A DNA stretch of 64,000 nt, taken from positions 45,753 through 109,752 of IMG/VR virus record IMGVR_UViG_3300045303_000152; one strand, written 5' to 3'. Of this stretch, positions 1-37,117 are shown in pieces (positions within the stretch are counted from its first letter, which is position 1; each line of letters begins with the position of its first letter). A program made the translations under genes and the position numbers. A model generated the notes under the pieces. The model did not search any database, was not told where the DNA came from, and worked only from the letters and a program-made list of their open reading frames with translations. The DNA comes from a virus.

Positions 1-363
1 CTCGGCTTTTGCGCGCTGCTGCTGCGGGGTTTGCTACCAGCATCGCCAGTGCCCATCGTGGCCGCGTGCGAGGCATGGTCGGCCGCTAGTGCGGTCGGGC
101 AATAGCACTCACGAGCTAGAGCACCAACGTCGCCCCATTGCTTACCGTCACACGCGCGCACCGTCGCTGCACCGTGACGCGGGCATGGCTACCGGCGCCC
201 GTAACCCCTAGCACCAACAAACCCCAAACTTGCGAAACCCATGTTTCGCCTTCAATGCTCGGCACGCGCGCACCGTCGCCACAGCACGAGCATTGCGGCC
301 GATACCATCGGGCATGATTGAACTAATCAGCATGCAAACCAACATCGACGGGGGTTTTACACT

Positions 364-615
364 ATGACGCGAATTGATCGGTACAAGCACAATCGCAACG
401 TTGCCGAGCAATCGGCAACACTCACGGTCGGCTCAATTGTGCGCATCACTAGCGAGCACAATTTTTACAACGGTCGGCTTGCAGTCATCATCGGGCACGT
501 TCAATTCGCAATGAGCGAGCTTGATTGCTATTGGGTGCGTATCACTGATACGCAAGTCACTTGCCTTGAACGGGCAAACGAACTGCGCTTGATTGATCGT
601 CAGCACTCAAACTAA
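364..615 (+). CDS. hypothetical leader-region protein (possible SH3/KOW-like fold)
   Basis: 83-aa ORF preceded by GGGGGTT RBS; 'VGSIVRI...YNGRLAVI...YWVRI' pattern. Confidence 0.6.
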   Translation: MTRIDRYKHNRNVAEQSATLTVGSIVRITSEHNFYNGRLAVIIGHVQFAMSELDCYWVRITDTQVTCLERANELRLIDRQHSN

Positions 616-628
616 GGGGTTTACACTG

Positions 629-1048
629 ATGGTTAAACGCCCATTCGACGGCATCAACGTTGATGCCTTGCAAGCTTGGCTCGATAACTTCGAGCGAGCG
701 CACCCGACGACTAGCGTTAAGCCGGCCTTGCCCACTAAGGCGCAAACGTTTGCCGAGCTTGATCGACTCGCAACACCAACAACCCTTGCGACCGTGAGCA
801 TTCGCACGCGCAAGGGTTATCGACCGCTGAAGGGTTACAGCTACCCATTCGACAGTACACCGAATGATAGCGTCGTGCATACGCTGGTGCATTGTTGGTT
901 CATTGATTACGTCGGCCCCGACAAGCCCGCGCGCTATGGCAATGTCGAAATTTCGGCCGACGAAACGGCGACTTTGCTTGCATGGGTAGCCGAGTGGCGC
1001 ATTGCGCGTCGTCGCCCCATCAAACGCGTGGCTAACTGCTATCGCTAA
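629..1048 (+). CDS. hypothetical protein
   Basis: ATG 629 after GGGGTTT RBS at 616. Confidence 0.65.
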   Translation: MVKRPFDGINVDALQAWLDNFERAHPTTSVKPALPTKAQTFAELDRLATPTTLATVSIRTRKGYRPLKGYSYPFDSTPNDSVVHTLVHCWFIDYVGPDKPARYGNVEISADETATLLAWVAEWRIARRRPIKRVANCYR

Positions 1049-1168
1049 CCTTGCCTCGCCTCACTTGCCTGCGATCACTCGCGGGCTTGTGGGCCGATGC
1101 AATCGCATCGGTTGCCGTTTCGGCTTAGGCCCACGGCGAAAACACTGCACACTGAGGGGTTTACGATC

Positions 1169-1519
1169 ATGGCTCGTTCGATCAAGCATGCCAAGGCCAA
1201 GGGCGCGACCGTCACCAAGGCCAATGGCAAGGCCAAGTCGGCCAAGTCGCGCAAGGGCGCCAAGTCGCGCAAGGGCGCCAAGTCGCGCGTTGTCGCTCGC
1301 GAGTACCAGCCCAAGCCCGGTACCGGGCTCGAGTTCACCGACGACACGCGCATCACTGTGCTAGTGCGCGAAAACCCGAAGCGTGGCAAATCGGCCAAGC
1401 GCTTCGCAGGGTACCTCACCAAAAAGCCGAAAACCGTCGCGGCCGCGATTGCCGCCGGCCTCACCCGCGCCGACATTCGCTGGGATGCCGGCAAGGGTTT
1501 CATCAAGCTGGGCAAGTAA
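1169..1519 (+). CDS. basic Lys/Ala-rich protein with C-terminal 'NPKR...D-W-D' domain; probable DNA-binding protein
   Basis: AKSRKG repeats; C-terminal domain shared with 32760..33395; GGGGTTT RBS at 1156. Confidence 0.75.
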   Translation: MARSIKHAKAKGATVTKANGKAKSAKSRKGAKSRKGAKSRVVAREYQPKPGTGLEFTDDTRITVLVRENPKRGKSAKRFAGYLTKKPKTVAAAIAAGLTRADIRWDAGKGFIKLGK

Positions 1520-1575
1520 GCTCGGCTAGTCGCGTGGTAGCGTAGCGCGTCAAACATCAGCCCACAAACTGCAAC

Positions 1576-1627
1576 GCCCACGCGCACACGGTTGCCAAGC
1601 TGGCGATTGTGTGGCGTGGGCTTTTTT
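1576..1627 (+). terminator. intrinsic terminator
   Basis: GCCCACGC...GCGTGGGC stem followed by TTTTTT downstream of the 1519 stop. Confidence 0.7.
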
Positions 1628-1754
1628 GTTTGTACACTACCAATCATCATGGGGGTTCACATGCTCGACAAGCTTTGCGCGTGGGCATACCGGCTGCCGT
1701 TTCGTTTGTGCGAGCCGGCTTACCTGCGAGCCGACTACTGGCGCGAGGTGCATC

Positions 1755-1949
1755 ATGCATCGCGGCATACATAAGCTAATTCACCAATGGGTTGCTCGGC
1801 ACAACGTTTGGGCAATCATAGCGTTTTGTGTACTGATGATTTACGCACCTCGCGTGCTGCAAGTCGCGTGGCCGTTCATTGGCCAGCTAGCTTGCGCGAC
1901 AATCGTAGCCTGCGCGGTCGCGGCAATCGTCGCACGCTTCACACGTTGA
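1755..1949 (+). CDS. small membrane protein
   Basis: Two hydrophobic segments; overlaps the short ORF 1661..1774. Confidence 0.55.
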   Translation: MHRGIHKLIHQWVARHNVWAIIAFCVLMIYAPRVLQVAWPFIGQLACATIVACAVAAIVARFTR

Positions 1950-2164
1950 ACGTTTCGCCTCACGGGCTCGCACGATGCGAGCTTGTGGGCCGACACGTGG
2001 CGCAATCATGTGTCGGGCTTGTTGCCGCGCGCCAAGTACGGCGCAACGCCTGATGAGGTTAGCCGGGTTCAACCCGTTACCCGCTAAACCTCATTGGCCG
2101 TTGCACTGAGCGGCGGGCGCGCTGGCGATTGTCAGCGTGCAAACTAAACTCAATGGGGGTTCAT

Positions 2165-2347
2165 GTGCGATACGCAATTGTTGACTTGCGCACCGGGGAA
2201 ACCATGCGCGTTTGCGTCAGCATGCTCGCAGCGTTGCGTGAGGTGCGGCGCTTCAATGACCACGCGGCACAATGGCACGGCGCCTTGTCGCGCTACGCGA
2301 TTGTGCCGACTTATGACGCGGCGAACCTTTGCGGGTTCGAACTGTGA
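2165..2347 (+). CDS. hypothetical protein
   Basis: GTG after GGGGGTT RBS at 2155. Confidence 0.55.
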   Translation: MRYAIVDLRTGETMRVCVSMLAALREVRRFNDHAAQWHGALSRYAIVPTYDAANLCGFEL

Positions 2348-2446
2348 CGCCTGACAAGCTGCGAGCCTCGCACGTTCGCAGCTTGTCGGCCGCTACAGGC
2401 TAGCGGCGCCTCGCAATCGTGCGAGGTGCAATCGACGGGGGTTCAC

Positions 2447-2674
2447 ATGATGCAATCGCATAGCGTCACTCAGTTGCGCCACGCCATGACTCACGGCCAC
2501 TATCGCCGCATGCGCGCGGGTGACCTGTTGACGGGCTTGGTGCTCGGCATGGCACTCGGCATGGCACTCGGCACAATCATCACGCTCGCATGCCTGCGAC
2601 TTGATGAACTGACGCACAGCAGCGCCCGCGCGGTCGTGAGCGAGCGCACGTGCATCGAGGCGATGTTACGCTAA
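2447..2674 (+). CDS. small membrane protein
   Basis: GGGGGTTCAC-ATG; hydrophobic GMAL repeat segment. Confidence 0.55.
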   Translation: MMQSHSVTQLRHAMTHGHYRRMRAGDLLTGLVLGMALGMALGTIITLACLRLDELTHSSARAVVSERTCIEAMLR

Positions 2675-2688
2675 CCCGCTGCTGCCTG

Positions 2689-2712
2689 CTGCTACCCTCG
2701 CGAGGGTAGCAG
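2689..2712. repeat. perfect 24-bp palindrome CTGCTACCCTCGCGAGGGTAGCAG
   Basis: Read directly. Confidence 0.9.
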
Positions 2713-3136
2713 TGGCCAGCAACGGCAGTTGTATCCGCAACACCGTTGCTTGTCGCACGCAAGCCGAGTTGTATATCAAAGTAGTTCATGTTGGAATTGC
2801 AACTTGTTGGTGTGTCAGCGGTCGCGGTCGCGAGGCTCGCGAGGGTAGCTGGCCACGGGCTTGCGAGGCGCGATGCCGCATATGGTCACAATGGGGCCTA
2901 GCGCGGTCGCTGGCTCGCATCGTGCGAGGTGCGGCACTGCCCTAGCCGCGCGCGGTCGCTGGCCACGGGCGACGCTGCTAGGGGGCTTGCGTGCGTTGCG
3001 TGACGTGCGGTCGCTGGCCAGCTCGGCAGCTTGCCCAGCTCGGGGCCGACCGTGGCAGAGTTGTATAGTCAACAGAAGTCGAGTTTCCTCAACCTGAGGT
3101 TTCAATGCACATACATCTTCGCCTTGACTGTACATC

Positions 3137-3206
3137 TGAACCGCGTTCATCTTGTAGCTACATTCTGAACCGCGTTCATCTTGCATATGCATCTGATCAG
3201 CGTTCA
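3137..3206. repeat. array of TGAACCGCGTTCA units (two exact, one degenerate), 28-29 bp period
   Basis: 3137-3149, 3166-3178, 3194-3206; spacers contain palindromes TGTAGCTACA and TGCATATGCA. Confidence 0.85.
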
Positions 3207-3672
3207 GTTGCATGTCGAACGCAGGCAGGCAGGCGGCGGCTCCTTGTAATCGGCCTCGGTCGCCTCGGTCGCGCCGAAGTCCAGCAAATCTGAGATTTGT
3301 CTTGGGAAAATCTTAAATCTGAAGCTCGAAGCTTTTTGCCTCGGTCGCTTTTTCAACAATTCAATTCGAAACTTTCACAAACGATCCTTATGACGCCGCC
3401 CCACGCGCGGGCGCGCGCTGCCATGTTGTTGACGATTTGCTCGGCGATGCTGGGCAACTCCTTAGCAACAGATGCAGCTTTTGCTATAAGCTCAACGCTG
3501 AGCGATAGCACTAGCCTTGGGCTAGATCTACAGCATTGTTGCAAATCGTACATCGTATGATCGGCATGCGAGGTTCGAAAAACGGTTTTTCAATTTCGAT
3601 TTGGATTTTCCAAGTTCAAAATTTCCAAGTGCCAGTGAGGAAGCAACCAGTGCAACAAGTGAGGAGCGTGCT

Positions 3673-3972
3673 ATGAAAGTGTCAGAAGCAGGCGTGCTGA
3701 CATTTCAGGGGGTCAGCTTCAATTACACCCTGAGGAAGCCAGAGCACTATCGCAGTGCGATGTTTCAATACTGCAATCGCAACGCCTTCAAGGTTGAAGA
3801 TAGCAGAATATGGGGCATCGAGCTGGAACATGCAATCGAGTGCTTACGCAAGTACGCGCAACTGAAGCTGCCCGACATCATCGCCGATCAAGAGGCGATG
3901 TTTCGAGCTCTCGGCTTCAACGTAACGTGGGGCACTAACAGCAAGGCCCAACACGTCATCATCATTCACTAA
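3673..3972 (+). CDS. hypothetical protein
   Basis: GAGGAG RBS, ATG 3673. Confidence 0.65.
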   Translation: MKVSEAGVLTFQGVSFNYTLRKPEHYRSAMFQYCNRNAFKVEDSRIWGIELEHAIECLRKYAQLKLPDIIADQEAMFRALGFNVTWGTNSKAQHVIIIH

Positions 3973-3984
3973 GGAGAAAGGATC

Positions 3985-4248
3985 ATGCCCGCCCCGTTAG
4001 GCAAAACGATCAGGCTCGAAACCTACAAGAAGAATGTGTACCGATGCGTAACGAACATTCGGTATCAAGAAACCCAACTGCATGAGCTAACGATGCAGTT
4101 GGCCGGAACTACAAACCTGTACCGTCAGTCGAAGCTGCGCAAGCTTATCAAGAATAAGCACTTCACCATCGCACGCTGGCGTGACAAGTTAAAGTTCGAG
4201 AATGCTCGCGAGATAGAACCTGAGCCTAGACCAACACGAGTACGCTAA
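3985..4248 (+). CDS. hypothetical protein
   Basis: AGGAG RBS. Confidence 0.6.
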   Translation: MPAPLGKTIRLETYKKNVYRCVTNIRYQETQLHELTMQLAGTTNLYRQSKLRKLIKNKHFTIARWRDKLKFENAREIEPEPRPTRVR

Positions 4249-4280
4249 CCTGCACTGCACAGTCTGACACTCAATGGAGC

Positions 4281-4589
4281 ATGACTATGCCTATCAGCCG
4301 AAAGACCAACCTGCCGCCCACCAAGCCCAAGGTAAAGGTAGAAGAAGCTGCGCCTACCCCAAGCGTCGAGTACAAGCCTTCTACAACCAAATACCTGTTC
4401 ACGCCCAAGCATCACCGCAAGCTCGCTGAGTTCTGCGCTGCTCATATCAAGAAGGTTGAGCAGCGTGAGCGTGAGCAAGCATGGCAAATGGCCTATGATA
4501 TGGGCGAGATGTTACAAGCCGACCATCGCGAGCACTTCAAGCCAACTGAGTTCTTCGCGCTGGTACATCAGCTAGTAGACCAGAAGTAA
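4281..4589 (+). CDS. hypothetical protein
   Basis: GGAG RBS, collinear. Confidence 0.6.
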   Translation: MTMPISRKTNLPPTKPKVKVEEAAPTPSVEYKPSTTKYLFTPKHHRKLAEFCAAHIKKVEQREREQAWQMAYDMGEMLQADHREHFKPTEFFALVHQLVDQK

Positions 4590-4627
4590 ACTGCACACAC
4601 TGCACAACTAACAAATGGAGCACTACT

Positions 4628-5146
4628 ATGCCTAGGTTCGAATACATGAAGCTCAATCTTAGTCATGAAGATCGTGACGGCGATGATGTGGATAGCTTGA
4701 ACTACTACGGCGAGCAGGGTTGGCAAGTCATCGCCGTGCAAGTGAACGGCATGGCATATCTGATGCGGGCTGTAGAAGAAACTACTAGTGCAACCGTCGA
4801 CACGCCACCTGCAAGCCCGCGTGGTGTGCTGACGCTCGACGTAACATCCTTCGACCGCAAGGCTGATGAGACAATGTTGCGCGAGCTACACATACTGCGC
4901 AAACTGGCTACACAGGAAATAACGAAGTTGTCAGAGTTTGTTGAGGTGGTTCAATATCTGGAACCGACCGTCGAGTATGCGTCGGTAGTAGCGCTGCTCG
5001 ACAGGCTCGAGAACGTCGGCGTGGTTACGCGGCCCCAGAAGGGCAAATATACGGCAGGCCCGAATGCACAGCAATATATGCTGCTACTTATTCAAACGCT
5101 GACGGAACGGAAAGTAGAAATACCCAATGGGGTTCACAAGAAGTAA
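4628..5146 (+). CDS. DUF4177-like N-terminus plus possible winged-helix C-terminus
   Basis: 'FEY...LNYYGEQGWQVIAV...YLMR' motif; C-terminal 'LDRLENVGVVTRPQKGKY'. Confidence 0.55.
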   Translation: MPRFEYMKLNLSHEDRDGDDVDSLNYYGEQGWQVIAVQVNGMAYLMRAVEETTSATVDTPPASPRGVLTLDVTSFDRKADETMLRELHILRKLATQEITKLSEFVEVVQYLEPTVEYASVVALLDRLENVGVVTRPQKGKYTAGPNAQQYMLLLIQTLTERKVEIPNGVHKK

Positions 5147-5187
5147 GCAGCGCCTAAACCAAACCAGCTAATGAGGGGGAATATCAA

Positions 5188-5502
5188 ATGCCCGCGACTG
5201 ACAACGCCTTGATGGCAAAGCCTCGTAATGTGGATGTTACCGATGCACGCACCCCGATGTGGATTGTACGCAAGATCGTACATCGCTTGGTGCTCGACTT
5301 CGGCAGCATCTACGTGGTTGATCAGATACAAGTGGCGATGGTTGGCAAGGCGTATGGGTTTATGGTCAGTTTCGAACTGACGCCCCAATCACCAAACGTG
5401 GAGTTGATGTTCAACGTGAGAATTGCGTACTTCGACTATGTTGGGGAGATCAAGTGGTGTTGCCTTACTACCAGAAATGAGGTAACTGGGAGGTGGCAGT
5501 AA
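5188..5502 (+). CDS. hypothetical protein
   Basis: GAGGGG RBS. Confidence 0.55.
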   Translation: MPATDNALMAKPRNVDVTDARTPMWIVRKIVHRLVLDFGSIYVVDQIQVAMVGKAYGFMVSFELTPQSPNVELMFNVRIAYFDYVGEIKWCCLTTRNEVTGRWQ

Positions 5503-5970
5503 TGTCAACACAATACGCCGTCATGCGGCGGAGGGAAGTGAATATGTGGTATGTTGAGATGTGCAATGGCAAACGTCACGGCCCATTCGAAAGCTATGAA
5601 GATGCTAACCAAATGGCTAGCGACGACGTAGCCAGAATATACCGGGTTCACAGCGTATCTCATCTACTGGCCTATGACAGAGCCATGCGCGAGCGGCGTG
5701 GCAAGCTGTCGCCCATAACGCTGCCAACGCCAGATCACCCGGCATTGCGGCGCCTGCTTGACGAGTAGTCGTTCTACCCCAATTACCCCTAGCTATTAAT
5801 GTAGATCTAGTACCATTAGCTGCCCTAGCTAGCACCCTAGCGCCCAAAATTGCTGAACGCTGTATATGCACTAATAGCTACCAGATTTCGACCGTAAATC
5901 GCGTATGTTTCGAGTACCGGCCAACGCCGAACCCTACAAACCAACGTCAACTTATGAAGAGGAACTAACC

Positions 5971-6543
5971 ATGCCTGCATTCATCAATGCCGCGACTGGC
6001 AAGCCTGAGAAGAAGCGCATGCGAATGGAAACTACGATGCAAAGCGGCAATCGCCCATTGTCATTCGAGGATGCGTGCAAAAGGTTCAAGAAGCGCTTCA
6101 CCCTCGATCACACACCGGGCTGGGCGCGTCACATCGTCGAGCGCACGGGCAAGTATCCGGCTCCTCGGTACAACAGCGACGTGGAATGGTACCAACGGTC
6201 GGAGTTCATCGGTTTCGCTACGACCGGCAGCCGTAAGTACATTCGTGAGAACGACCCGACATGGCCGGTTGGTCGCTGGCTCGATAAGCCGTTCAAGCGT
6301 GAGGAGTTTGGCAAGGTAGCCAAGGCCAAGCAGAAAGCCGAGCGTTATGGCACGCAGCGCAAAACGTTGAGTAATCCTACTCCCAAGGCTTTGCAAGAGC
6401 TCGATCGGCTGATTACCGCTACCAAGCCCGCTGCACCAACTCAAACGGTGCCAAAAGGTCGGATCAGCGGTAAGAAGGCCAATCACCGGCCGACCAAAGC
6501 TGGCAAGAAGCCGACCAACGGCAACAAGAACGGCAAGAAGTGA
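5971..6543 (+). CDS. hypothetical protein with basic tail
   Basis: GAGGA RBS before ATG 5971. Confidence 0.65.
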   Translation: MPAFINAATGKPEKKRMRMETTMQSGNRPLSFEDACKRFKKRFTLDHTPGWARHIVERTGKYPAPRYNSDVEWYQRSEFIGFATTGSRKYIRENDPTWPVGRWLDKPFKREEFGKVAKAKQKAERYGTQRKTLSNPTPKALQELDRLITATKPAAPTQTVPKGRISGKKANHRPTKAGKKPTNGNKNGKK

Positions 6544-6571
6544 ACAAACGTCAACTCAAGGAACGTGCGTC

Positions 6572-6778
6572 ATGAGCGAGTCTGAAGCAGTTGCGTGGGT
6601 AGCACTGGGCTGGTGCTACTTCTGGGGAGCCATAGTTTCATTTGTACTGGTCTATATGCTTCGTGCTCCTGATCCAACAATAAATAGGTGGATTGTGCTG
6701 GTAACTTTCTCATGGCCAGTAACAATGCCTTGGATGATCGTTGATGCACTCGCCAACATGGTGAAGGACAAGAAATGA
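6572..6778 (+). CDS. small membrane protein (paralog of 7978..8232)
   Basis: ALGWxYFWG...WPV motif. Confidence 0.65.
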   Translation: MSESEAVAWVALGWCYFWGAIVSFVLVYMLRAPDPTINRWIVLVTFSWPVTMPWMIVDALANMVKDKK

Positions 6779-7740
6779 AAGCGCGCACATTCGACAAGGC
6801 CGATGTGTACGAGCGCATAACTGCTCAGATTATTAAGGACGTTGAGGCTGGGACGATACCCTGGCTGATACCCTGGTCACATTCTAAAGCCACTCAGGCT
6901 CGAGATTTGACCTTGCAAGACGTGTGGCCGGCTAACGCAATCACCGGCCACCTGTACAACGGCGCAAACGTGTTTCAATGCTGGATGCATCAGTCAAGGC
7001 TGAAGGCAGAAGGGCCACCGCTGTTCTTAACCTTCAAGCAAGCGAAGGCAGCCGGCGGCTACGTGCGCAAAGGAGAGCAGAGCATCATCGTCATCGGCTT
7101 CAACAGTGGCTTGAAGAAAGTCGAGCAGGACGATGGTACGACCAAAACCAAAAAGACTTTCTATGCGTTCGGCCACTTCGTATTTCACATCAGCCAATGT
7201 GAGAATGTGAAGCTGCCAAAGCGCAAGCCCATAGAGCGACCCGTGGGCCTCGACGATGACAAGGCATGGCAGGCGTTCATCAAAGCTACCGGAGCAGACA
7301 TTCGCCACGGTGGCACGAGTGCTCACTACAAGCCCATCGCAGACTACATACAAATGCCGACGGCCAAGGCGTTCAAGACTAAGGATGATTACAAGGCTGT
7401 CGAGTTGCACGAGTTGACACACTGGACAAGCCACAAGACTAGGTGCGACAGGCCAATCATGCACATGTTCCAAAGCGAGGGCTACGCAAAGGAGGAGCTG
7501 ATTGCCGAGCTGGGCAGTGCATTTCTATGTGCCAAGCTGGGCGTCGTGCAAAAGACTGTGCGTCACGCCGACTATGTTGGCGATTGGCTGAAAGTGCTCA
7601 AGAACGACAAGCGCGCCATCGTGCGCGCTGCGTCGCAGGCAATGAAGGCCACAACCTTCATTGAGACGCTGGTAGGTGATGCGTTGAAACCAAAAGTGAA
7701 GCGCAAGCGTTTGAAACCATCGAAAGGAAAAAGGCGATGA
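6775..7740 (+). CDS. ardC: ArdC-family antirestriction / ssDNA-binding protein with zincin-like domain
   Basis: 'YERITAQII...PWLIPW', 'YNGAN', 'LTFKQA...VRKGE', HELTH metal motif, 'YAKEELIAELGSAFL'. Confidence 0.9.
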   Translation: MKARTFDKADVYERITAQIIKDVEAGTIPWLIPWSHSKATQARDLTLQDVWPANAITGHLYNGANVFQCWMHQSRLKAEGPPLFLTFKQAKAAGGYVRKGEQSIIVIGFNSGLKKVEQDDGTTKTKKTFYAFGHFVFHISQCENVKLPKRKPIERPVGLDDDKAWQAFIKATGADIRHGGTSAHYKPIADYIQMPTAKAFKTKDDYKAVELHELTHWTSHKTRCDRPIMHMFQSEGYAKEELIAELGSAFLCAKLGVVQKTVRHADYVGDWLKVLKNDKRAIVRAASQAMKATTFIETLVGDALKPKVKRKRLKPSKGKRR

Positions 7741-7977
7741 CCCCAAGACACGGCGTAGCAGCAGCGACCTTCTTCACAGGCACGAGAAAGAATGGTGACA
7801 AGGTATGGATCAACGTGGCTGAAATAACCACGATGATCGACCACACCGACAAGAAGAAACCTGACAACAGGTACACCATCATCGCAACGGTGCATGGCGT
7901 GAGCCAGCAAGCTATGTTTCTGAACGAAACGCCAGAAACCCTGATCGCCACGGCGGTAACGATAGTCGGGTAAGCCC

Positions 7978-8232
7978 ATGTCAACTCGAGAAACGCTGCT
8001 GGTGCTGGCATTGGGTTGGCTCTATTTCTGGGGCCTGTTCATAACATTCTGCTTTCAAATGCTGACGGTAGCCTATTTCAAACAGACTAAGGAGATGAAC
8101 GGCCTGCATTTGGCCTACATCATCTTCTTATGCATATGCTGGCCTGTTAGCTTACCCAAGGCTGGCGTGCCAGCTATCGGCGACATGCTGTCAACGTTGG
8201 CAGCTCACATCAAGCAAAGGAGAAAGAAGTGA
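7978..8232 (+). CDS. small membrane protein (paralog of 6572..6778)
   Basis: ALGWLYFWG...WPV. Confidence 0.65.
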   Translation: MSTRETLLVLALGWLYFWGLFITFCFQMLTVAYFKQTKEMNGLHLAYIIFLCICWPVSLPKAGVPAIGDMLSTLAAHIKQRRKK

Positions 8233-8725
8233 GAGTGTTCAGGCGCCTGTCAGATGATGGGCATGCTTCTGTATTCAAGTCAAGGGTAAGCGCCGGCATG
8301 ATCGTACTGGAAATTGCCTATGCGCATGGCTTGGCCAGAATGATCACAACCTTATCCAAGGAGGAGGCCAAGCGTTACGCAACGTGGTTACTAAGCAAAA
8401 CGGAGTGAGCTAATGACTGGGGGTCACATGACGTTCATTGAGGAATACCTAGGCTGGGAGATATACCTCGATATGCCAGCGAAGATGTACTACGCAATAG
8501 ATCCTAGTAGCGGCACTCGCTACGGGCCTAGCCGCAGTCGAGCCGACTTGAAACTCTATATCAACAGAGTAAAAAGTAGCTTTAGCCTGTAACAATTAAC
8601 ATTCAAAGAAAGGAGAACTGACCATGCCGCAACTTGCGAGAGTTACCGTGCTGATGGGCCTAGTCACGGCATTTGCCATCGTGCTGGCTATCAGCTTGAT
8701 CGTGATATTCGGGTAGTCTGCAAAA

Positions 8726-8739
8726 GTTCAAAATTGAAC
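8726..8739. promoter_or_regulatory. palindrome GTTCAANNTTGAAC, copy 1
   Basis: GTTCAAAATTGAAC, intergenic, just before an RBS. Confidence 0.65.
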
Positions 8740-8759
8740 TTCACCAAGGAGAGGGAAAT

Positions 8760-11079
8760 ATGAGCGAGCATCGAGACGTGCGTAGTGACGCTTATTGGCA
8801 GGAGTGGGCCGATAACTACAAGCCGACGCCAAGTGGTCCACAGCCAACCGCCACGGGTTATCTGCTGCTGGCGGCGTATGGTAAGGCTAAGCGGGCACTC
8901 ATTCGGCTGGTGTGCTTTGTGTACCAGCACGACATCGAGACTGAAGAGTGGGATGAAGTCAACTACAAGATCGAAAACATACCCTGGCACTGCCGGCGTT
9001 GCGGTGCTGGCGGCATAACCCGCTAAGGCTAAGCTTCAACACAATCAGGCAGTATGTAAACTCTAAGGAAGAGAGGGATCGAGCTATGGCTAAAACAACC
9101 CAAGTCTGCATCAATGAGAACTGCGTGTTCGTGTTTCAGACCAATCACGGCTCGCTAGTAGTGAGGTTCGAGAAGGTAGGCACCCGTGATACTATTTACA
9201 GCGTCGTGACCTATCAGGACAAAAACAATACAATCATCGGGCCGAACATCGGCTACGCGTTCAAGCCGAGAAACAGCAACGAGGCGTGAGCATATGTGGA
9301 TACACAAAGTAGAACGAATATTAAAGGAGGGAACTATGGATGTGCAAATCGAGGCGATGCGTTGTCAAGTATCGAACGTGTTCTACCCTCATTGGGCACT
9401 CAGAAGGGTAGCGCTTGATACTAGCAAGGACACCGGCAAGAGCATCATCGTGCATGAGCCGTTGGCTCGAATGACAGCAACGGCTGTAAGGAACAATAGC
9501 CTAGAAGCTTTTGTGAAGCTGGTACGACTGTCGCAAACACTAAAAGACATAAAGGAGTGAGTAGCATGGGGAAGAACAGACGTAAGCCAATCGAGCGCAA
9601 GCGGCTAGGCCCAGTCGGTGGGCGATACTCGACGCCGTTCTTGAACTATGGCGCGGGCGTTATGAAGGTAACGCCACGACCCATCGACATCAAGATACCT
9701 CGCCGCTTGCTGCTTGCCTTGCAAGTACGTGAGGATAGCAAAAAAGAATGGGGTAACCTGCGCGCGCATTCGATCAACCAGTACACACCCGAAAGCCAGA
9801 AAAACAAGCTAAGAAAGGAACTCGAGTACTTGCGTGAGGGTTGGATGGTGAATGCCTACTTCGGTAGCAATGCATCATTCAGAATTCACGAGGTTTACAC
9901 CCGGCCCGAGGCAGCCACCTACTAAGGAACATGAATATCATGACAAAGAAAGCAAAGAAAAAGCTCAACGGCGTTCACGTGCAAGTCGCAGCGGAGCCAA
10001 TCGAAGCACCTCAATACCTGGGGCACAAGCCGCGCATGGGTAAAGGCAATAAGATCGCCTTGGCCCGAGCAATAGCAGCAGCACGCAACGCCGCTCGCAA
10101 GAGCAACTTGTTCGACGGCATCAGGGGGCACGGCATCGTGATACTCATAGATGCTGCATTGCAGGATGCATTCTTACCCAAGGGCAAGATCGAGGTGCGC
10201 CGCGAGGGGGATCGCTTACAACAAGCATTGAAGCTAGTGAGAGACAGCCAGCGCATGCAGCAGGCACCGCCAGGATTGCTAACCTAATGGAGCCAGAAAT
10301 GAAACACAAGCTAAAGCCCAAGGCTAAACCTAAGCTTGAGGAGTACATATACGCAATCGCAAATCCAGTCACCGGCATGGAGTTGGTGCGCTCGACCTGG
10401 GCGTACTCACTGCAGGAAGCTACTCGCCAAACTGAGAATATTGCTCGGTGCTTTGGCAAGTCAACAGAAGTTGTTCATGTTGAGAGGGCCTGATGATTAG
10501 AATAACACTGCCCCCTTATCCAGAAGTGATCCACATCATGGGCACGCACGGCCTACAATCGCTGACCACTGATAGATTTGCATACCTAGAGAGGGAGTAC
10601 AAGCAACATCTAGCCTTGCTGGTCAGCATGCAATACCACGGCAAGTTCACCGCAGATCAAATAACGGGCATGGTCTTTATCATAGGACTAATGCTGCAAG
10701 CACCCGATGGAGGTAACTGATGGCAACGTACAAACAATTCCCACACTGTCACGCATTCGCAGCCGGGCATGCTGCTGAGAACAGCATACCGCACGACGCC
10801 TTTCATCGCCTAAGGGACTGTGAGGTGTTGCAGACTGAAATCAACCTTTGGAATAGGACTGAAACCGTACTCGCTGCGCTGAAGCTAGATACTCCTGGTG
10901 GCAAAATTTCAGAGCGGCAAGCTGCACTGTTTCAGCTCGGCTATACCCAAGCAATGGGTACGGATGAAATTGCCGATGCCGCTGACGATACCGAGCGCGA
11001 CAAGCTTGAGAAGGAGTACGACCAAAAGCTGGGCCTCGACGACCCGACTATCAGAGAGTTTGTGATTTCGCTGTACTGA
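8760..11079 (+). other. run of small hypothetical CDSs (8760-9026, ~9086-9289, 9294-9560, 9557-9925, 9931-10287, 10287-10493, 10493-10720, 10720-11079)
   Basis: Tightly abutting + strand ORFs with RBSs; no recognised family. Confidence 0.6.
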
Positions 11080-11245
11080 AAGCAAACTCAACCCTAAGGA
11101 GACTTACTATGGAACCCAAGTTGGAATTCGCATTGACTTCGTGGTGCGTGATCTGCCGTAAGTTCGTGCTCGTGCCTTGCGAGCGTGGTGAGTTCGCCAG
11201 TAGTAAGAAACCAAGCTAAGCAAGCGCAAGCTAAGGAGATTTGTA

Positions 11246-13153
11246 ATGGCCGCTACTCGCAAGGTTAAAGAGCCAACAACTGCCAGACGTAAGGCAGCCG
11301 CCAAGAAAAATGAAAAGGTGGTGAAGGAGTATATAAGAAAAAAGCTGCCGAAGCCTTCGGCGAAGAAGTTCACGCCGAAGGCAATGATCGTCACGAGCAA
11401 AACGATCAAAAACACACCGGGCATGCCGCTCACGGCCAAGGCGTATTTGAAGAAGCCTACCAAGCCCACCGCAAAGGCAAAGAAGCCAGCCAAGGCTAAG
11501 GAGACTGTTAAGCGTTGGATACCAGCGCTCAGTGAACCCCAAGCCGAGCGAATGGCTAAGAAGCTAACCGAACAAATGGCTGCGGAGCTAACAGTTGAGT
11601 GGAAACCCAAGTACGAGCTTATTCTGCCCAAGGGCAACGTACCGGCCTCGCCGCAACAGTCTATATTATTTGATTGGATCATCGTGGGTTCCGGCAACGC
11701 GTTCGTGGAAGCTGTCGCCGGCAGCGGTAAGACGACATCGCTGACGCAAGGCTGCCGGTTCATGAGTGGCAGCGTGATGTTGACTTGCTTCAATAAGAAG
11801 ATAGCGGTCGACATCAGCACCAAGCTGGAACAGTTGAAGCTGGCCAACGTGAGTTCCAGCACGTTCCACTCGGTTGGTTGGAAAGCATGCATCAGAGCTT
11901 ACAAAGGCGTCAAGCTCGACGCCCGTGGTAAGCGCGATGCCATGTTCGAGTATTTGCGGGTAGAGGCTACCTTGATGGAGTTTCCCGTCAAGCTGCGCAG
12001 CATCGTCGGCAACCTCGTATCACTGGCAAAGCAGAAGGGCGTGTTCAAGTTTCACGAGCCTGATGATCGGGAGTTTTGGCATGACATCATCGAGCATCAC
12101 AACCTCGATGATGAGATCGAAGACCCCGCAATGGTCGAGCAGGCAATCGAGTTCGCCATCAGCGGCATCAAATGGTCGAAGGAGATTGCACCAAAGCTGA
12201 TGGACTTCGACGATCAGATTTGGATGCCCATCATCACCAACATGCAGGTGCCTAAGTTCGACTGGGTGCTGGTAGATGAAGCGCAGGATACGAATGCAGC
12301 ACGCCGGGCATTGGCACACAAGATGATGCACGAGCGCAGCCGCATTGTATTCGTCGGTGATCGCAACCAAGCCATCTACGGCTTTTGCGGTGCCGACAGC
12401 GATGCCATCGACATTTTGATGAAGGACTTCAACTGTATCGCCCTGCCGTTGAATGTCACCTATCGCTGCCCGCAAGCCGTGGTGCGTGAGGCTCAGAAAT
12501 ACGTGAGCCACATCGTAGCGTGGGATCAGGCAGCCATCGGCTCAGTGGCCAGCGTCAACGCCACCGAGTTTTGGGATAACGAAGTGGCGAAGCTTTATCC
12601 CGAATGCGCCATACTGTGCCGCAACACCAAGCCGCTCGTTGCATTGGCGTTTCAGTTGATCCGTCGCAACGTGGCTTGCCATGTCGAGGGTCGCGACATT
12701 GGCCAAGGTTTGCTCAAGCTGACCCAACGATGGAAAGTCACTGAGATAGGTGAGCTGCACGACAAGCTCGAAGAGTATCTCGAGCGTGAGCGGGCCAAGC
12801 TCGACCTTGCTCGTAAGGAGGCTCAGTCGGCCGCCCTGCAAGATAGGGTCGAAACCCTGTACATTTTGATGGAGGGCTGCACGACCGTATCGCAGCTTGC
12901 CGCCAAGATAGACAACCTGTTCAAGGATACCGAGGGTAGCCAAAAGCGAACCGTCACCCTGAGCACCGTACACAAAGCCAAGGGTCGAGAGTGGGACTAC
13001 GTGTACATTCTCGGCTTCGACAAGTACATGCCGAGCAAGTGGGCCAAGCAATCGTGGGAGAAGGAGCAAGAGACTAATATCATTTACGTCGCGATCACCC
13101 GAGCCATCAAACAACTCACGTTCACCGAGCACTTGGAGGATAAGAAAGCATGA
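11246..13153 (+). CDS. UvrD/Rep-like superfamily 1 helicase with Lys-rich N-terminal extension
   Basis: AVAGSGKT, DEAQD, VGDRNQAIYGF, YRCP, STVHKAKGREW, YVAITRA. Confidence 0.92.
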   Translation: MAATRKVKEPTTARRKAAAKKNEKVVKEYIRKKLPKPSAKKFTPKAMIVTSKTIKNTPGMPLTAKAYLKKPTKPTAKAKKPAKAKETVKRWIPALSEPQAERMAKKLTEQMAAELTVEWKPKYELILPKGNVPASPQQSILFDWIIVGSGNAFVEAVAGSGKTTSLTQGCRFMSGSVMLTCFNKKIAVDISTKLEQLKLANVSSSTFHSVGWKACIRAYKGVKLDARGKRDAMFEYLRVEATLMEFPVKLRSIVGNLVSLAKQKGVFKFHEPDDREFWHDIIEHHNLDDEIEDPAMVEQAIEFAISGIKWSKEIAPKLMDFDDQIWMPIITNMQVPKFDWVLVDEAQDTNAARRALAHKMMHERSRIVFVGDRNQAIYGFCGADSDAIDILMKDFNCIALPLNVTYRCPQAVVREAQKYVSHIVAWDQAAIGSVASVNATEFWDNEVAKLYPECAILCRNTKPLVALAFQLIRRNVACHVEGRDIGQGLLKLTQRWKVTEIGELHDKLEEYLERERAKLDLARKEAQSAALQDRVETLYILMEGCTTVSQLAAKIDNLFKDTEGSQKRTVTLSTVHKAKGREWDYVYILGFDKYMPSKWAKQSWEKEQETNIIYVAITRAIKQLTFTEHLEDKKA

Positions 13154-14954
13154 GACGGCTTTTGAAATGGTGGCGTAGGGAGAATTTGCGTGCAGCGGTC
13201 TACGGCGAGCAAATGCGATTTTTCTACCTCACACACCCCGACGACGTATCGGCTGAAGAGCTAGCAAAACATCGTGCGGATTGGGCTCGCCGTTTGCAAC
13301 TTGCTGATGCTGAGTACAGGCTGGAGGAGAAGAAGTCATGAACTACTACTGGGTTTGGTTTCGTACCTCTAAGTACGAGTCACTGGAAATAGCCAAGTTC
13401 GATAGTCAGGAGGGTGTGACGACCTTTCTAAACGCTTACGCCGGCAATAGTGAACTCGAGTTTACCGTCGTGTTTGGATCAGAGATCAAGTTCAGAGCTG
13501 TCACTGTCATCACCAAGTACGAGCGGGATGATACCGGCGAAAACCAAGGGGAGAAGAAAGCGTGACGGACCAGTACTGTAGCAAGTGTAGAAGTAGAATG
13601 GACATGATTATCACTGACTGCTCACAAATAGGTAGGTGGGTGGGCAGTGATGGGCTAACCGCAAATCGCCAGTTTAGAAAGGACACTGGTGAAGAGATTA
13701 TGGTGCGTATGTGGGTGTGCCCCAACTTCAATAAGAGAACCAACAACAATTGGTTTCAAGTAAACGTGCTAGGGCATGCCAAGTACGAGCAGCATGACAA
13801 GCAAGCAGAGTTTGTAAACCATGACAACCCGCACGCTGTAATCCTATAGCGCGCAACCCCAACCAAGGAGAACTACCCAATGTTACAAGATAAGCTCATA
13901 CCCCTACTGCTGGGCGCTGCTGTTTGCACCCTGGCCGGCGCGCTGGTATTTGGCGTTTCCACCATACCACGTGACCCGCCGCTGGCGCCGATCAAGCCAA
14001 TGAGCTTGAACACGGCAATCCAGCATTGCAACGATGCCGCCTACCAGAAGGCGCCCAACGTCAAGCAGTGGGACATCACCGAATGCCTGTACCATGCGCT
14101 GGATGGCAAGTACCCGATCAAGTCTTCCATTTCGAAGAAGCTGCCACAGTAGGTATGTTATAGGCGAGGCTGCATCAACCCCGAGGGCTCAAATGCGACG
14201 CAAACAACTAACCTCACAAAGGCGCAGAATCGCACCGCCGGCGCCTGATCGCCCGCCAGTAAAGGAGATGCTGGTCGGGCCAAAGAAAGCTTTCAAGCCA
14301 TCGCTGCTCGCGCAGTTTCAGCGGTTGCTTGAAAAGACCCCCGGCAACTACTGGATAATCGTGTACAGTGGCAAAGGGTATACTGACCTGGATTTGAATA
14401 CTACCAAAGAATCCACCGTCAGCACCATACGCCACTTCAAGCACTGTTACCCAGATGCCAAAGTGATCTACTTGAAAATACCCGACGAAGAGCCTAAAGC
14501 TAGCCCCAAACCAGCCAAGCGCAGCTTTGATAAAAAGAAGTACGCGAAAGCTGCCAGAGCCCGTCAATACTAAACCCAGTGGAGGCGTACCGTGCTTCGC
14601 TTAATAGTCAAAGTGTGCCCGAAAGAAAATGGCCGTTTCAACGGTGATGACGAAAGCATCAACCTGAAATGCTACAAAGTTTTCGAGGTGGAGCACGAGG
14701 ACTTGGAGGACTACATCACTGAGCAGCGTGATAATGGCCAGCCAATCAAGCTGGTGGCAATAGAAGTGTTCGAGCAAGCGCCACTGCCATTGGCAACGCC
14801 AGTGTTTCCAGAGTACAAGCCGAGCGATGCAAGCCCCGCCGCGCAAGGCTCATTGATGGCAGCACTCGCAGCGAAGCACAAGCCGGCTAATGACTTCTGG
14901 GGCAGCCTGTTCAAGCGTAAACGCTACGTGCCGCCGCTCAACTTGCCTAAGTAG
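13150..14954 (+). other. run of small hypothetical CDSs (13150-13341, 13338-13565, 13562-13849, 13880-14152 secreted/membrane, ~14193-14573, 14592-14954)
   Basis: Overlapping stop/start junctions and RBSs. Confidence 0.6.
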
Positions 14955-14961
14955 AATTGGC

Positions 14962-14975
14962 GTTCAATTTTGAAC
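14962..14975. promoter_or_regulatory. palindrome GTTCAANNTTGAAC, copy 2
   Basis: GTTCAATTTTGAAC just after the 14954 stop. Confidence 0.65.
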
Positions 14976-15134
14976 TTGTGGGGTAGAAACAGCTAGGGCG
15001 GTCGAGGGTGATGGGATTCCCTGACCGCCCTAACTCGTTGCACCCGCGCCGTCAACCCCTTGCGCGTCACAGGAGCATCATAACACTAGCGTAAACATAC
15101 CTAATCGTCAACCTAAACTGAGGGAGAACTAGCT

Positions 15135-15482
15135 ATGAGCCTTAATTGGGAGAACGACAAATGCCGCAAGTGCAAGCTAGCGCGCACACCTGAAGGGCAC
15201 GACCCATGCCTAGGTGAACTGCCGGGGGTTTTGTTCGCATGTTGCGGGCATGGCAACGGTGCGGGGTACATCTACTTCCAAAGCGGGGTGCTTATCAACT
15301 TCGGCTTTTGCTCGATTGAGCAAGTACCGCCAGAAAAGCTGGCTCAAAGCCGAGCATTGAAGCAATCAGAGTTATTCGAGGCTTACAAGCTCAGGCGATT
15401 GAACAATACCAGCATTGTTAAGCGAGATTCTGATGCATTAGTAAAGGCTAGAACATTCAGGTGGAGTAAGCAGTCGGGCTAG
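15135..15482 (+). CDS. Cys-rich hypothetical protein
   Basis: 'CRKC...GHDPCLGELPGVLFACCGHG'. Confidence 0.7.
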   Translation: MSLNWENDKCRKCKLARTPEGHDPCLGELPGVLFACCGHGNGAGYIYFQSGVLINFGFCSIEQVPPEKLAQSRALKQSELFEAYKLRRLNNTSIVKRDSDALVKARTFRWSKQSG

Positions 15483-15593
15483 AGGGTTAGGCTGGCAGGC
15501 ATAGGCTGGGCAACCCCGTTGCCGCCCCTACGAGCCTCGGCACTGGTGCTAGGGCTGGTACTGGGCATGCAACTAGAGTGCTAACCAGCATTG

Positions 15594-15622
15594 TTGAACC
15601 AGAAGAGAGTGAATAGTAGATT
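15594..15622 (+). promoter_or_regulatory. sigma70-like promoter
   Basis: TTGAAC-N17-TAGATT. Confidence 0.55.
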
Positions 15623-15628
15623 GGCGGG

Positions 15629-15989
15629 GTTCAACACGTTACTGGCTTGAAGCAGTTTCAGCGACGACCTACAGGCGCTTTTGTTTTGCCAGAGCCTCAA
15701 CTGGCCGCCCCTACGATCCGCAGGGTTTGGTTTGCATCAGTGGAGCCCCCACTGATCGAGCTACGCGCTTCCATGAGCGTGTTGCCGTATGCTCGCTGTT
15801 CGGTAGCAACCGGCCTTCAAACCGCATTGCTATATCCGGGGTTATGAGATTTGTCGCAGTAGGTGCTCGGCAGCACCGTCGCCTTTCATTGGTGGGCGGT
15901 GAAGGGTCAAGTTCCGCTGAAGCATCATCAGGCCGTAATCGCTAGGCAGTAGGCGGCGGAGGTCACGCTTCAACACCACTCCGCTCTTT
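15629..15989 (+). ncRNA. candidate large structured non-coding RNA
   Basis: Long-range stems 15638-15670 with 15904-15939 including G-U pairs, several nested hairpins, upstream promoter, terminal GCGGAG/CTCCGC hairpin plus TCTTT. Confidence 0.6.
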
Positions 15990-16125
15990 AACAAGCTCGA
16001 TCAGCTATTAGCTGGGCTCGCCTAGTGTGTAAGTACAACCATACTGCGATTCTTAAATCAAGTTGGTAATCGTATGTTGAAAGTGAGCAAGCAATCGGGC
16101 TTCGCTCAAACTCGAAGGTAACATC

Positions 16126-17076: not shown

Positions 17077-17148
17077 CATTTGGAAAATGGATGGGGTAGG
17101 CTCAGTATGTATAGTACGAGCCTACCCTAACCTTTTGGAGCTTACAAC

Positions 17149-20800: not shown

Positions 20801-21133
20801 GTACGACGGGATATCAAAGCCCTCACTGCACAGCTCAAAGGATTAGATACCATCACTACCGTTGACGCGAAACTGGTTAGTGCCCTCGAATTGATTGAGG
20901 ACCAGCGCACGCTTATCAAAGAACAGACCAAGCGCATGGACGACATCGAGCGTGGAATTCGAGAGGTAGCTGTCAATACTGCCGCGGATGTGGCTTTGGC
21001 CCTAGAGAAAGCTTTACAAAAGACTCGTGGACGATACCGGCTGGTAGTCCACAAGCCTACACTCAAACTAGCCGAAGCCTTGAAGTCCGTCGAAGTAGCA
21101 GCATCGTAACTCAGGCGTGTAAGTAGAACTTGG

Positions 21134-24369: not shown

Positions 24370-24375
24370 AGTGCT

Positions 24376-37112: not shown

Positions 37113-37117
37113 TACCT

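Follow-up and report, generated by a model that had tools for sequence, protein, structure and literature searches.

Like the locus described here, the first-step-transfer DNA of phage T5 is a block of small genes that heads the early genes, is purged of words common elsewhere, and is bounded by a non-coding stretch rich in repeats and palindromes. The pre-early proteins of T5 are A1, A2 and the 5'-deoxynucleotidase Dmp; to our knowledge, an even spacing of the avoided word elsewhere in T5 has not been reported. Avoidance of restriction sites likewise reflects selection on duplex words regardless of coding. T4-type phages carry in their hyperplastic regions promoter/stem-loop early-gene cassettes (PeSL), in which small orphan genes stand behind repeated leaders, each a hairpin with a conserved ribosome-binding-site word, and which are gained and lost between close relatives; we know of no word purge in these regions. 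The rules of thymidine hypermodification are known only roughly, in the form of a preference for TG or TC deduced from restriction digests. In phages M6, ViI, phiW-14 and SH-Ab 15599, kinase-dependent thymine hypermodification is partial and depends on context, being directed to TG and to a lesser extent to TC (PMC6449724, PMC13458397). NTC is the context preferred by a phage T-dioxygenase (PMC13229309), and bulky T adducts block non-cognate polymerases (PMC12686479). The DpdA enzymes that place 7-deazaguanine at GA or GGC (CAjan, PMC7544227; iggy, PMC10484667) are also phage marking enzymes that read two to three bases.

Here we describe an uncultured soil phage in which the word RGA/TCY is purged from a single 3.2-kb island of small genes and is spaced with unusual evenness everywhere else. 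The two features together imply that something reads RGA/TCY, most likely the phage's own thymine-modification machinery.

The window, the whole stretch of 64,000 nucleotides that was analysed, starts at base 45,753 of a 109,752-bp record. The ends of this record overlap by 149 nt with one mismatch, within a gene start, and the record is thus a circular assembly with the island in its interior, between the late (terminase-head-tail) block and the early/replication block (Table 1). An earlier note on this DNA had taken the island for a leader and a possible entry zone. Both readings rest on the window edge and are unsupported: position 1 is not a genome end, the hole runs 151 nt leftward past it to a total of 3.2 kb, and the circular record places the island at 45.6-48.8 kb. 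The attractive story of a first-entering leader is therefore to be corrected. Relatives of the TerL protein (best match Pam3, 46%) gave no usable prediction of packaging type. The island may be expressed early or first, as its position and the size of its genes suggest.

Table 1. Features of the island, of the remaining genome and of the genes discussed in the text (window positions unless marked as genome positions).
Feature	Position	Strand	Description
RGA/TCY-free island	1..3056; genome 45,602-48,808	.	5 sites in 3207 bp
Island gene 1, 83 aa	364..615	+	Ribosome-binding site GGGGGTT at 351; no known family
Island gene 2, 139 aa	629..1048	+	Ribosome-binding site AAGGGGTT; orphan
Island gene 3, 116 aa	1169..1519	+	Lys-rich tail and winged-helix-like C-terminal domain
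Terminator-like hairpin	1585..1637	+	G+C-rich, long, then TTTTTTG; read from the sequence, 3' of gene 3
Island genes 4-7	1661-1774, 1787-2053, 2165-2347, 2447-2674	+	Three of four preceded by GGGGGTTCA ribosome-binding sites
Non-coding right end of island	2675..3056	.	Palindromes; GCGGTCGCTGGC three times (2903, 2952, 3007)
Sharp right boundary	3057..3210	+	Third AGTTGTATAGT word (3059), then 29-bp tandem array
"Ruled" remainder	3057..64000 plus genome 1-45,601	.	RGA/TCY about every 25 bp
Anti-restriction-like early gene	6775..7740	+	phrog_7245, E = 4.5e-70; 3.7 kb downstream of island
DnaG-type primase	29610-30596
211-aa protein	32760..33395	+	Helical N-terminus, acidic linker, Lys/Ala-rich tract, winged-helix-like domain
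5-hmdU DNA kinase	33441..34328	+	PF18723, E = 1.4e-43, 149.7 bits (cut-off 25)
TET-associated glycosyltransferase	34337..35278	+	PF20691, E = 2e-14; adjoins kinase
Thymidylate-synthase homolog, 383 aa	37097..38248	+	PF00303, E = 5e-22; phrog_5131, E = 1e-101; candidate dUMP hydroxymethylase

Recounting reproduced exactly the five RGA/TCY sites that the earlier note had listed for positions 1-3050 (AGA 118, GGA 1483, GGA 2197, TCC 2734 and GGA 2793). Its expectation of about 190 sites under a uniform model came out at 190, while base composition predicts 182 and the rate in the rest of the genome about 126 (Poisson log10 P = -46). Shuffles of the island that preserve dinucleotides gave 103±7 sites, and the lowest of 1000 had 76. 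Only the AGA/TCT family (observed/expected 0.014) and the GGA/TCC family (0.036) are purged; the next-lowest trinucleotide in the island stands at 0.51, and none of the 16 4-bp palindromes is depleted. CGA, TGA, TCG and TCA, which had been called abundant, occur 76, 40, 97 and 57 times, and the abrupt end that had been placed near 3057 is equally clear, with AGA 3057 as the next site and dense sites downstream of it. The purge affects a single word to an extreme degree, and no second hole of this kind is found in the 109.7-kb genome.

Codon bias does not explain the purge. The coding DNA of the island holds 2 sites in 1815 nt, where 60.8±6.5 are expected after recoding with the codon usage of the genome and 48.2±5.0 when synonymous codons are permuted within the island; the non-coding DNA holds 3 sites in 1392 nt, with 41.3±4.5 expected. 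As the earlier note had argued from the strand symmetry of the depletion, the target of selection is duplex DNA rather than mRNA: the depletion is strand-symmetric, is found in both coding and non-coding DNA, and extends to the ribosome-binding sites, which read GGGGGTT inside the island as compared to AGGAG in the remaining genome. The restraint is visible in individual codons. In island gene 3, AAG stands before an A-starting codon in 0 of 18 cases, AAA being used there, whereas the paralog of this gene outside the island has 9 AAG-A junctions and 29 RGA/TCY sites in 636 nt. The GGA at 1483 is forced by a Trp-Asp pair (TGG GAT), and the paralogous domain keeps both residues without exception.

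The G+C content of the island (60%, vs 52% elsewhere) and the enrichment of its proteins in Arg and Ala might suggest that the absence of the word has no function and that the island is a foreign insert of unusual composition or the product of a mutational bias. We find this scarcely credible. It is already contradicted by the codon permutation, by shuffles matched in composition or dinucleotides, which still give 100-180 sites, and by the filtering of substitutions since the split from a close relative described below; in addition, newly acquired cassettes are equally clean, the paralog elsewhere in the genome is full of sites, and a further 36 phage loci with a winged-helix-like domain, about 430 kb in all, contain no comparable hole.

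The same hole is present in a close relative, IMGVR_UViG_3300005544_000022 (81-95% identical in nucleotides), although gene cassettes have been gained and lost. The cassettes that differ are equally clean; island gene 2 is missing from the relative. With 237 substitutions in 2143 aligned bases, 4 and 7 sites remain, compared with 32±5 when substitutions are placed at random. The purge of the island is thus maintained by purifying selection. Two of the five residual sites lie in the non-coding right end, which also carries promoter-like AGTTGTAT words at 2727 and 2767, and both sites are kept in the relative. The tandem array beyond the boundary, CATCT-rich and with TGAAC-N3-GTTCA palindromes, is larger in the relative. 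The seven island proteins had no match in Pfam or PHROG, the first 6 kb had none in a nucleotide search against 50,697 phage records, and Rfam and tRNA scans of the island returned nothing over threshold. A simple scan for sigma-70 promoters and terminators found no excess over shuffles; the hairpin 3' of gene 3 is missed by such a scan because its loop exceeds 8 nt.

Outside the island the same word forms a spacing ruler, which was previously unremarked and is new here. The earlier note had treated the scarcity of RGA/TCY as a local property; it is true that the island is the only such hole, but the word is also 21% rarer than in synonymous shuffles elsewhere (4186 vs 5336±39 sites, z = -30). 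The coefficient of variation of the gaps is 0.784, as compared to 0.921±0.010 in shuffled sequences (z = -14), so that RGA/TCY has the most regular spacing among 128 word families, the runner-up reaching z = -6.7. Gaps of 8-16 bp are few, those of 9-11 nt occurring at 0.42x the shuffled number, while gaps of 48-59 nt occur at 1.54x; only 10 gaps of at least 100 nt were observed, where a geometric distribution at equal density gives about 76. The evenness appears only when the orientations are pooled (RGA(+) z = -1.2, TCY(+) z = +3.5, pooled z = -13.5), and AGA and GGA combined are more regular than each alone, both of which point to one class of sites at the level of the duplex. A lost site has a replacement nearby in 47% of cases, whereas random positions have one in 22%, and the ratio of 2.2 compares with 1.3-1.8 for control families; individual RGA/TCY sites are conserved no better than other trinucleotides. 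A 10.5-bp periodicity in the pair correlation was too noisy for a claim, and avoidance of a PAM was rejected as it does not predict the ruler.

An even density of the word elsewhere is not predicted by pure avoidance, and this weakens the view that host defence shaped the island in the manner of T5 first-step transfer. According to that view, a nuclease or toxin reading RGA/TCY hits DNA that is exposed before counter-measures are in place, and the island, being exposed first, would therefore have lost every target; the agent could be a restriction activity with a very short site, an enzyme that depends on modification or, as had been proposed earlier, a DarT-like ADP-ribosyltransferase. Such a factor is conceivable in that near-total loss on both strands is the outcome of a lethal per-site hit, and restriction pressure on this phage is clear, as the genome has almost no copies of many 6-bp palindromes (CCCGGG 0 of 36 expected, TTTAAA 0 of 18, GGGCCC 1 of 36). 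The anti-restriction-like gene lies close downstream, and the island adjoins the late block at its terminase end, a common location of packaging sites, and closes with a repeat- and palindrome-rich non-coding stretch. However, 4186 sites persist elsewhere, more evenly than by chance and with long site-free stretches selected against everywhere except in the island, an arrangement that avoidance alone would not predict; nor is RGA/TCY palindromic, and genome-wide it is under-represented by only 21%. T5 avoids ordinary restriction sites, whereas here a single asymmetric 3-bp word is missing and the island shows no depletion of any 4-bp palindrome. The T5 block also lies in a mapped terminal repeat, while the present phage is known as a circular assembly that lends no support to first entry of the island, and the island proteins match no T5 pre-early family, homologs of A1, A2 and Dmp being absent among the seven by Pfam and PHROG. 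We know of no described restriction activity with a degenerate 3-bp site, and overall we consider host defence an unlikely explanation.

The reading we favour, with a probability of roughly 45%, is that the lineage itself marks its DNA at RGA/TCY, probably by hypermodifying thymidine in TCY, and that the island is kept free of marks. As in M6, ViI, phiW-14 and SH-Ab 15599, the genome encodes a 5-hmdU DNA kinase and a homolog of thymidylate synthase, the candidate source of 5-hmdU in DNA, a Tet_JBP match not having been obtained; next to the kinase is a TET-associated glycosyltransferase. These genes, together with the published TG/TC contexts, make the link to thymidine hypermodification drawn in the earlier note plausible. 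Island gene 3 is a paralog of the gene for the 211-aa protein, which lies immediately upstream of the kinase and is its conserved neighbour in three lineages, an observation that we have counted for the marking interpretation.

If it is correct, RGA/TCY would be a three-base duplex word read by a system of the phage lineage, the likeliest reader being post-replicative thymidine hypermodification in which the T of TCY would be the substrate of the kinase and of the enzymes that follow it. Selection would hold one site per roughly 15-80 bp, on either strand, over about 106 kb, and would remove both close pairs (8-16 bp) and bare stretches (>100 bp); the loss of both extremes of spacing fits a requirement for marks throughout the genome combined with a cost of placing them too densely. 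From a single 3.2-kb module, seven small genes with their own G-rich ribosome-binding sites, the word would be excluded, so that this module would escape the marking of the remaining chromosome. We speculate that the island may contain the first genes read by unaltered host machinery; alternatively, the module may need to be hidden from modification-dependent host nucleases until its products act.

Several observations count against this reading. The characterised phages with the kinase pathway are reported to be mainly TG-specific. Among the scanned genes neighbouring the kinase there was no match to a Pplase or amino-acid:DNA transferase, so that, unlike the M6-type pathway, the one predicted here combines a kinase and a TET-associated glycosyltransferase with no recognised Pplase. 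Phage M6 itself has no word-free hole, and neither a TCY context nor ruler spacing nor an unmarked gene island has been described for its pathway. The genome-wide avoidance of 6-bp palindromes extends to those with the word in them (TCTAGA, GGATCC, TCCGGA). A fully protective mark would be expected to spare these, although selection against close pairs could account for their avoidance. As for a 7-deazaguanine mark, no TGT/DpdA homolog is present (PF01702, no match at E <= 1, with 14 of 14 control genomes matched).

The distribution of the ruler is in line with a role of the kinase pathway. The same ruler is found in the close relative, and in a more distant kinase-bearing relative (DNA polymerase 58% identical) RGA/TCY is again the top family, with 25 long gaps vs 57 expected. 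The ruler is absent from three relatives without the 5-hmdU DNA kinase, and G002-G004 (DNA polymerase 34-41% identity) have neither hole nor ruler; in G001 the syntenic region is missing. With three related genomes set against three, the association of ruler and kinase is confounded by phylogeny.

The exclusion zone of 8-16 bp around each site, whatever its orientation, might instead reflect a phage-encoded DNA-coating or compacting protein that binds RGA/TCY, covers about 10-15 bp per site and requires no chemical modification, the site-free island being left open for immediate expression. The Lys-rich winged-helix protein would be an example of such a reader: there are two paralogs, in the island and beside the kinase, with a Lys-rich tail and a confidently predicted winged-helix-like domain. 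Against this, three degenerate bases offer very low specificity for DNA binding, and the winged-helix match is modest (Z = 6.5) and speaks to the fold only; Foldseek returned nothing from the PDB at E <= 0.001. The domain family is also widespread (2505 representatives), and the 36 other loci mentioned above carry it without a hole. We therefore regard a coating protein as quite unlikely.

Primases, too, recognise trinucleotides (GTC in T7, GTT/GCT in T4, CTG in E. coli), and the genome encodes one of the DnaG type, so that RGA/TCY could be a replication word and the island a zone barred from priming. This seems very improbable. Okazaki priming needs about one site per kb rather than one every 25 bp with an exclusion of 8-16 bp, nothing points to a reason for 3.2 kb of small genes to be primer-free on both strands, and the ruler follows the kinase-bearing lineage.

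Returning to the marking interpretation, we suggest more tentatively that the phage carries an undescribed genome-marking code, in which a three-base word on either strand serves as a chromosome-wide ruler whose spacing is under stabilising selection, with one early-gene module left off. If this holds, sequence alone would reveal the target word of a modification or reader system together with an "unmarked" class of genes. The genome itself nominates the word (TCY), the spacing rule and the set of genes that would have to escape. This makes testable the specificity of one kinase family, any cost of bulky DNA marks to early expression or any targeting of them by modification-dependent defences, and the use of spacing statistics as a chemistry-free readout of modification motifs in metagenomic phage genomes.

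The organisation of the island resembles that of PeSL cassettes in its small orphan genes behind repeated leaders and in the turnover of cassettes between close relatives, although the leaders here are only putative promoters. A metagenome scan with a nearby 321-aa gene retrieved only the same close relative and a 2-kb fragment, while contigs from rhizosphere and soil runs belong to diverged relatives with rearranged cassettes.

A scripted count of RGA/TCY (AGA, GGA, TCT and TCC on either strand) returns exactly the five words that the earlier note had read by eye in window positions 1-3050: AGA 118, GGA 1483, GGA 2197, TCC 2734 and GGA 2793. From window 3057 on, the density in the window is 29-56 sites per kb; the nearly empty block, termed the island here (genome 45,602-48,808), is the sole such hole in the 109,752-bp record. 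Within it the observed/expected ratio is 0.014 for AGA/TCT and 0.036 for GGA/TCC, and among the strand-symmetric words of two, three and four bases nothing else is purged apart from the tetramers that contain these two families; the third-lowest trinucleotide family stands at 0.51. The expected number of sites is 182 from base composition, 126 from the site density elsewhere in the genome (Poisson 1e-46) and 103±7 from dinucleotide-preserving shuffles. Codon usage predicts far more sites than are found: the coding DNA (seven small plus-strand genes, called in this analysis) holds 2 in 1815 nt, against 61±6.5 when the proteins are recoded with genome codon usage and 48±5 when synonymous codons are permuted within the island. 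Since the latter permutation starts from a codon set that already lacks the four codons, the avoidance must operate at codon junctions too. The non-coding DNA has 3 sites in 1392 bases (41±4.5 expected). That such a scarcity should have a neutral, compositional origin is scarcely credible. Two finer readings of the earlier note, that a Trp-Asp pair forces the GGA at 1483 and that Lys codons are chosen so as to avoid the word, are also correct. The ribosome-binding sites of the island read GGGGGTT, AAGGGGTT or GAGGGGTT; AGGAG has 103 plus-strand copies in the record as a whole.

The proposal that the block is a leader had to be given up. The window covers bases 45,753-109,752 of the record. The first and last 149 nt of that record (genome 1-149 and 109604-109752), within a gene start, are the same but for a single G/T mismatch at position 23, which indicates a circular assembly and not real ends; the island is internal, and the "leader" is thus an artefact of the window cut. 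Its IMG/VR entry describes it as linear and 85% complete, yet the source run has a contig of 109,618 nt that matches it end to end. The sequence is present in contigs of soil and rhizosphere metagenome runs. In the gene layout (see table) the rightward block opens with the island, and 4.6 kb separate the island from the point where the late operon starts; both an early role and a packaging site close by are plausible. Next to the non-coding stretch on the island's left lies an HNH endonuclease gene, at a distance of 4.6 kb from the gene for the small terminase; it may encode either a homing endonuclease or an HNH protein associated with packaging. The final four sites before the hole lie in non-coding DNA, spaced 81, 81 and 78 nt, and site density tapers here before ending.

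Coordinates of the island, its surroundings and related features (L001, this genome; L002, the close relative; L020 and L006, further loci)
Feature	Coordinates	Strand
Small and large terminase, portal, major head protein, tail genes	genome about 41.0 to 12.5 kb	minus
Small terminase gene	L001:903-1685	
Small ORFs and HNH endonuclease	genome about 41-44.8 kb	
HNH endonuclease gene	L001:6310-6807; genome 44310-44807	minus
Non-coding stretch, 0.9 kb	after the about 41-44.8 kb block	
Final four sites left of the hole	L001:7361, 7442, 7523, 7601	
Island	genome 45.6-48.8 kb	
Same hole in the close relative	L002:1041-4410	
Early, nucleotide-metabolism and replication genes	about 49 kb to record end, on to 12.5 kb	plus
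Conserved 100-nt stretch	window 239-339; L002:1586-1686	
29-bp tandem array (TACATCTGAACCGCGTTCATCTTG...) with TGAAC-N3-GTTCA palindromes	window 3131-3206; L002:4440-4640	
AGTTGTAT	window 2727, 2767, 3059; genome 44991 (L001:6991), 21493	
AGTTGTAT	33825	minus
Anti-restriction-like gene	window 6775-7740	
Sigma-70 region-2-like gene	31767-32378	
C-terminal domain copies (~60 residues)	window 1334-1516, 33204-33392; L020:5963-6163; L006:4004-4183	
Longest site-free stretch outside the island	window 51254-51464	
Site-free stretch in G001	G001:C1:3128-3462	

Outside the island the 4186 sites have a mean gap of 25.4 nt with a CV of 0.784, and 10 gaps are at least 100 nt long, where a geometric distribution with the same density would give about 76. 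As a control we used 100-200 genomes with synonymous codons permuted inside each gene, built on our own ORF-based gene calls (157 genes, 88% coding). Compared with these, RGA/TCY is 21% rarer (5336±39 shuffled, z = -30) and far more evenly spaced (CV 0.921±0.010 shuffled, z = -14), and it is the leading outlier among 128 word families on both counts. Relative to the shuffles, the number of gaps is 0.42-fold at 9-11 nt, 1.54-fold at 48-59 nt and 0.5-fold at 100 nt or more, the last despite fewer sites in total; the pair correlation has an exclusion zone at 8-16 nt. This ruler-like evenness emerges only on pooling (RGA on one strand z = -1.2, TCY on one strand z = +3.5, both pooled z = -13.5; AGA/TCT alone z = -5, GGA/TCC alone z = -4), and the four trinucleotides therefore act as one orientation-blind duplex site. 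That the site is a primase word seems to us very improbable. The widest gap between sites outside the island spans 210 nt of G+C-rich intergenic DNA; it resembles the island spacers in style and is preceded by two hairpins with C-rich loops.

The ruler recurs in relatives with a 5-hmdU DNA kinase, as this phage has. In the close relative IMGVR_UViG_3300005544_000022 the CV is 0.75 with 2 long gaps against 28 expected, and in the more distant G001 (polymerase 58% identical) RGA/TCY is the top family with 25 against 57; in G002, G003 and G004, which lack the kinase (polymerase 34-41% identical), the CV ranks 19, 10 and 25 of 128 and long gaps are near expectation, few independent points in all. 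Single sites are conserved no better than other trinucleotides, and a gained site lies within 20 nt of a lost one at a ratio of 2.2, against 1.3-1.8 in control families, which lends weak support to selection on spacing rather than fixed positions. The 44-kb contig of G001, which stops short of the region syntenic with the island, has one 334-nt site-free stretch and is otherwise ruled.

The close relative, 81-95% identical in nucleotides, has the same hole with 11 sites, although gene 2 is absent and about 260 bp are inserted elsewhere. It keeps 4 of the 5 residual window sites, which fall either on a codon pair that forces the word or on non-coding words that are conserved. The two islands differ at 237 of 2143 aligned positions; random placement of these substitutions with the observed spectrum yields 32±5 sites, whereas the actual numbers are 4 and 7, and in the flanks simulated and observed numbers match. 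Selection against RGA/TCY is therefore ongoing, newly acquired cassettes included. Just upstream of the first island gene, 100 nt of non-coding DNA are 98% identical between the phages (flanks 36-59%); this stretch has no match in Rfam and may be a conserved leader, promoter or RNA element. The protein of the anti-restriction-like gene (phrog_7245, E = 4.5e-70) is 99% identical between the two, although the DNA around it is only about 88% identical.

The kinase (PF18723, E = 1.4e-43) adjoins a TET-associated glycosyltransferase, and the phage also encodes an HD 5'-deoxynucleotidase-like protein, a 383-aa thymidylate-synthase homolog, a ParB-N protein and several methyltransferase-like proteins; neither a Tet/JBP dioxygenase nor DpdA was found in this genome. 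From restriction mapping of M6, ViI and phiW-14 it was proposed that the kinase prefers TG or TC (PMC6449724), SH-Ab 15599 is modified chiefly at TG and less at TC (PMC13458397), and a phage T-dioxygenase prefers NTC (PMC13229309); exact motifs were described as unknown in 2018 (PMC5889632). Given these preferences, a TCY-specific member of this kinase group would be plausible. Directly upstream of the kinase, in a neighbourhood kept in G001 and a third contig, lies a 211-aa gene to which island gene 3 is paralogous (50% identity in the 62-residue C-terminal domain, E = 3e-15). The domain (ITVL..NPKR...RF.LY...TV..A...G....D..WD), which has no Pfam model, is predicted as strand, three helices, strand with pLDDT above 90, and its best structural matches are winged-helix domains at modest scores (Z = 6.5). 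It has 2505 representatives (E <= 1e-3) in a large protein library, mostly C-terminal in small viral proteins; in this lineage it comes after a Lys-rich tract, directly upstream of the kinase. As both paralogs have this tract, it is reasonable to infer that both bind DNA. A protein that reads the word with no chemistry involved is, in our estimate, quite unlikely.

We suggest, at a probability of about 0.45, that RGA/TCY would be targeted by a marking system belonging to the phage, not by an enzyme of the host, with the island as an unmarked module, because the word is disfavoured when crowded, favoured when absent over >100 bp, blind to strand and confined to the kinase lineage. The weakest steps are which base is modified and why the island is bare. 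A T5-like explanation, in which the DNA exposed first evades a nuclease or toxin of the host, accounts for the completeness of the purge and fits both the nearby anti-restriction-like gene and the strong genome-wide avoidance of 6-bp palindromes. Outside the island CCCGGG (0 against 36 expected), TTTAAA (0 against 18) and GGGCCC (1 against 36) are nearly absent and CCGCGG, AGGCCT, GTGCAC and ACATGT have 2 copies each, while others are over-represented (GCCGGC, 122 against 36); this loss is classical restriction-site avoidance in a phage also carrying a hypermodification pathway. However, the explanation leaves the ruler unaccounted for and none of the sixteen 4-bp palindromes is depleted in the island, and we consider it unlikely, if less so than a reader protein, a primase word or a neutral origin, all of which fall behind these two. 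The two can be combined: an unmarked module would evade a modification-dependent nuclease until its own products act, which needs stepwise entry.

The closest known cases are T5 first-step-transfer DNA, whose testable defining features the island lacks; context-specific thymidine or deazaguanine modification, documented here in part only; and classical site avoidance. Nowhere in the literature that we searched is a gene island free of one word described from a hypermodified phage, or a short word spaced like a ruler, and there is a substantial chance that the finding is a new principle.

Directly after the right edge of the island lies the 29-bp array, with further copies in the close relative; it is unusually rich in CATCT, that is, in the word absent from the island, and could be an operator or iteron array. 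AGTTGTAT, extending as AGTTGTATAGT, ...ATATC or ...ATCCG, recurs at the same edge and once in the 0.9-kb stretch to the left, and could act as a promoter element specific to this phage; the phage has a gene with weak likeness to sigma-70 region 2.
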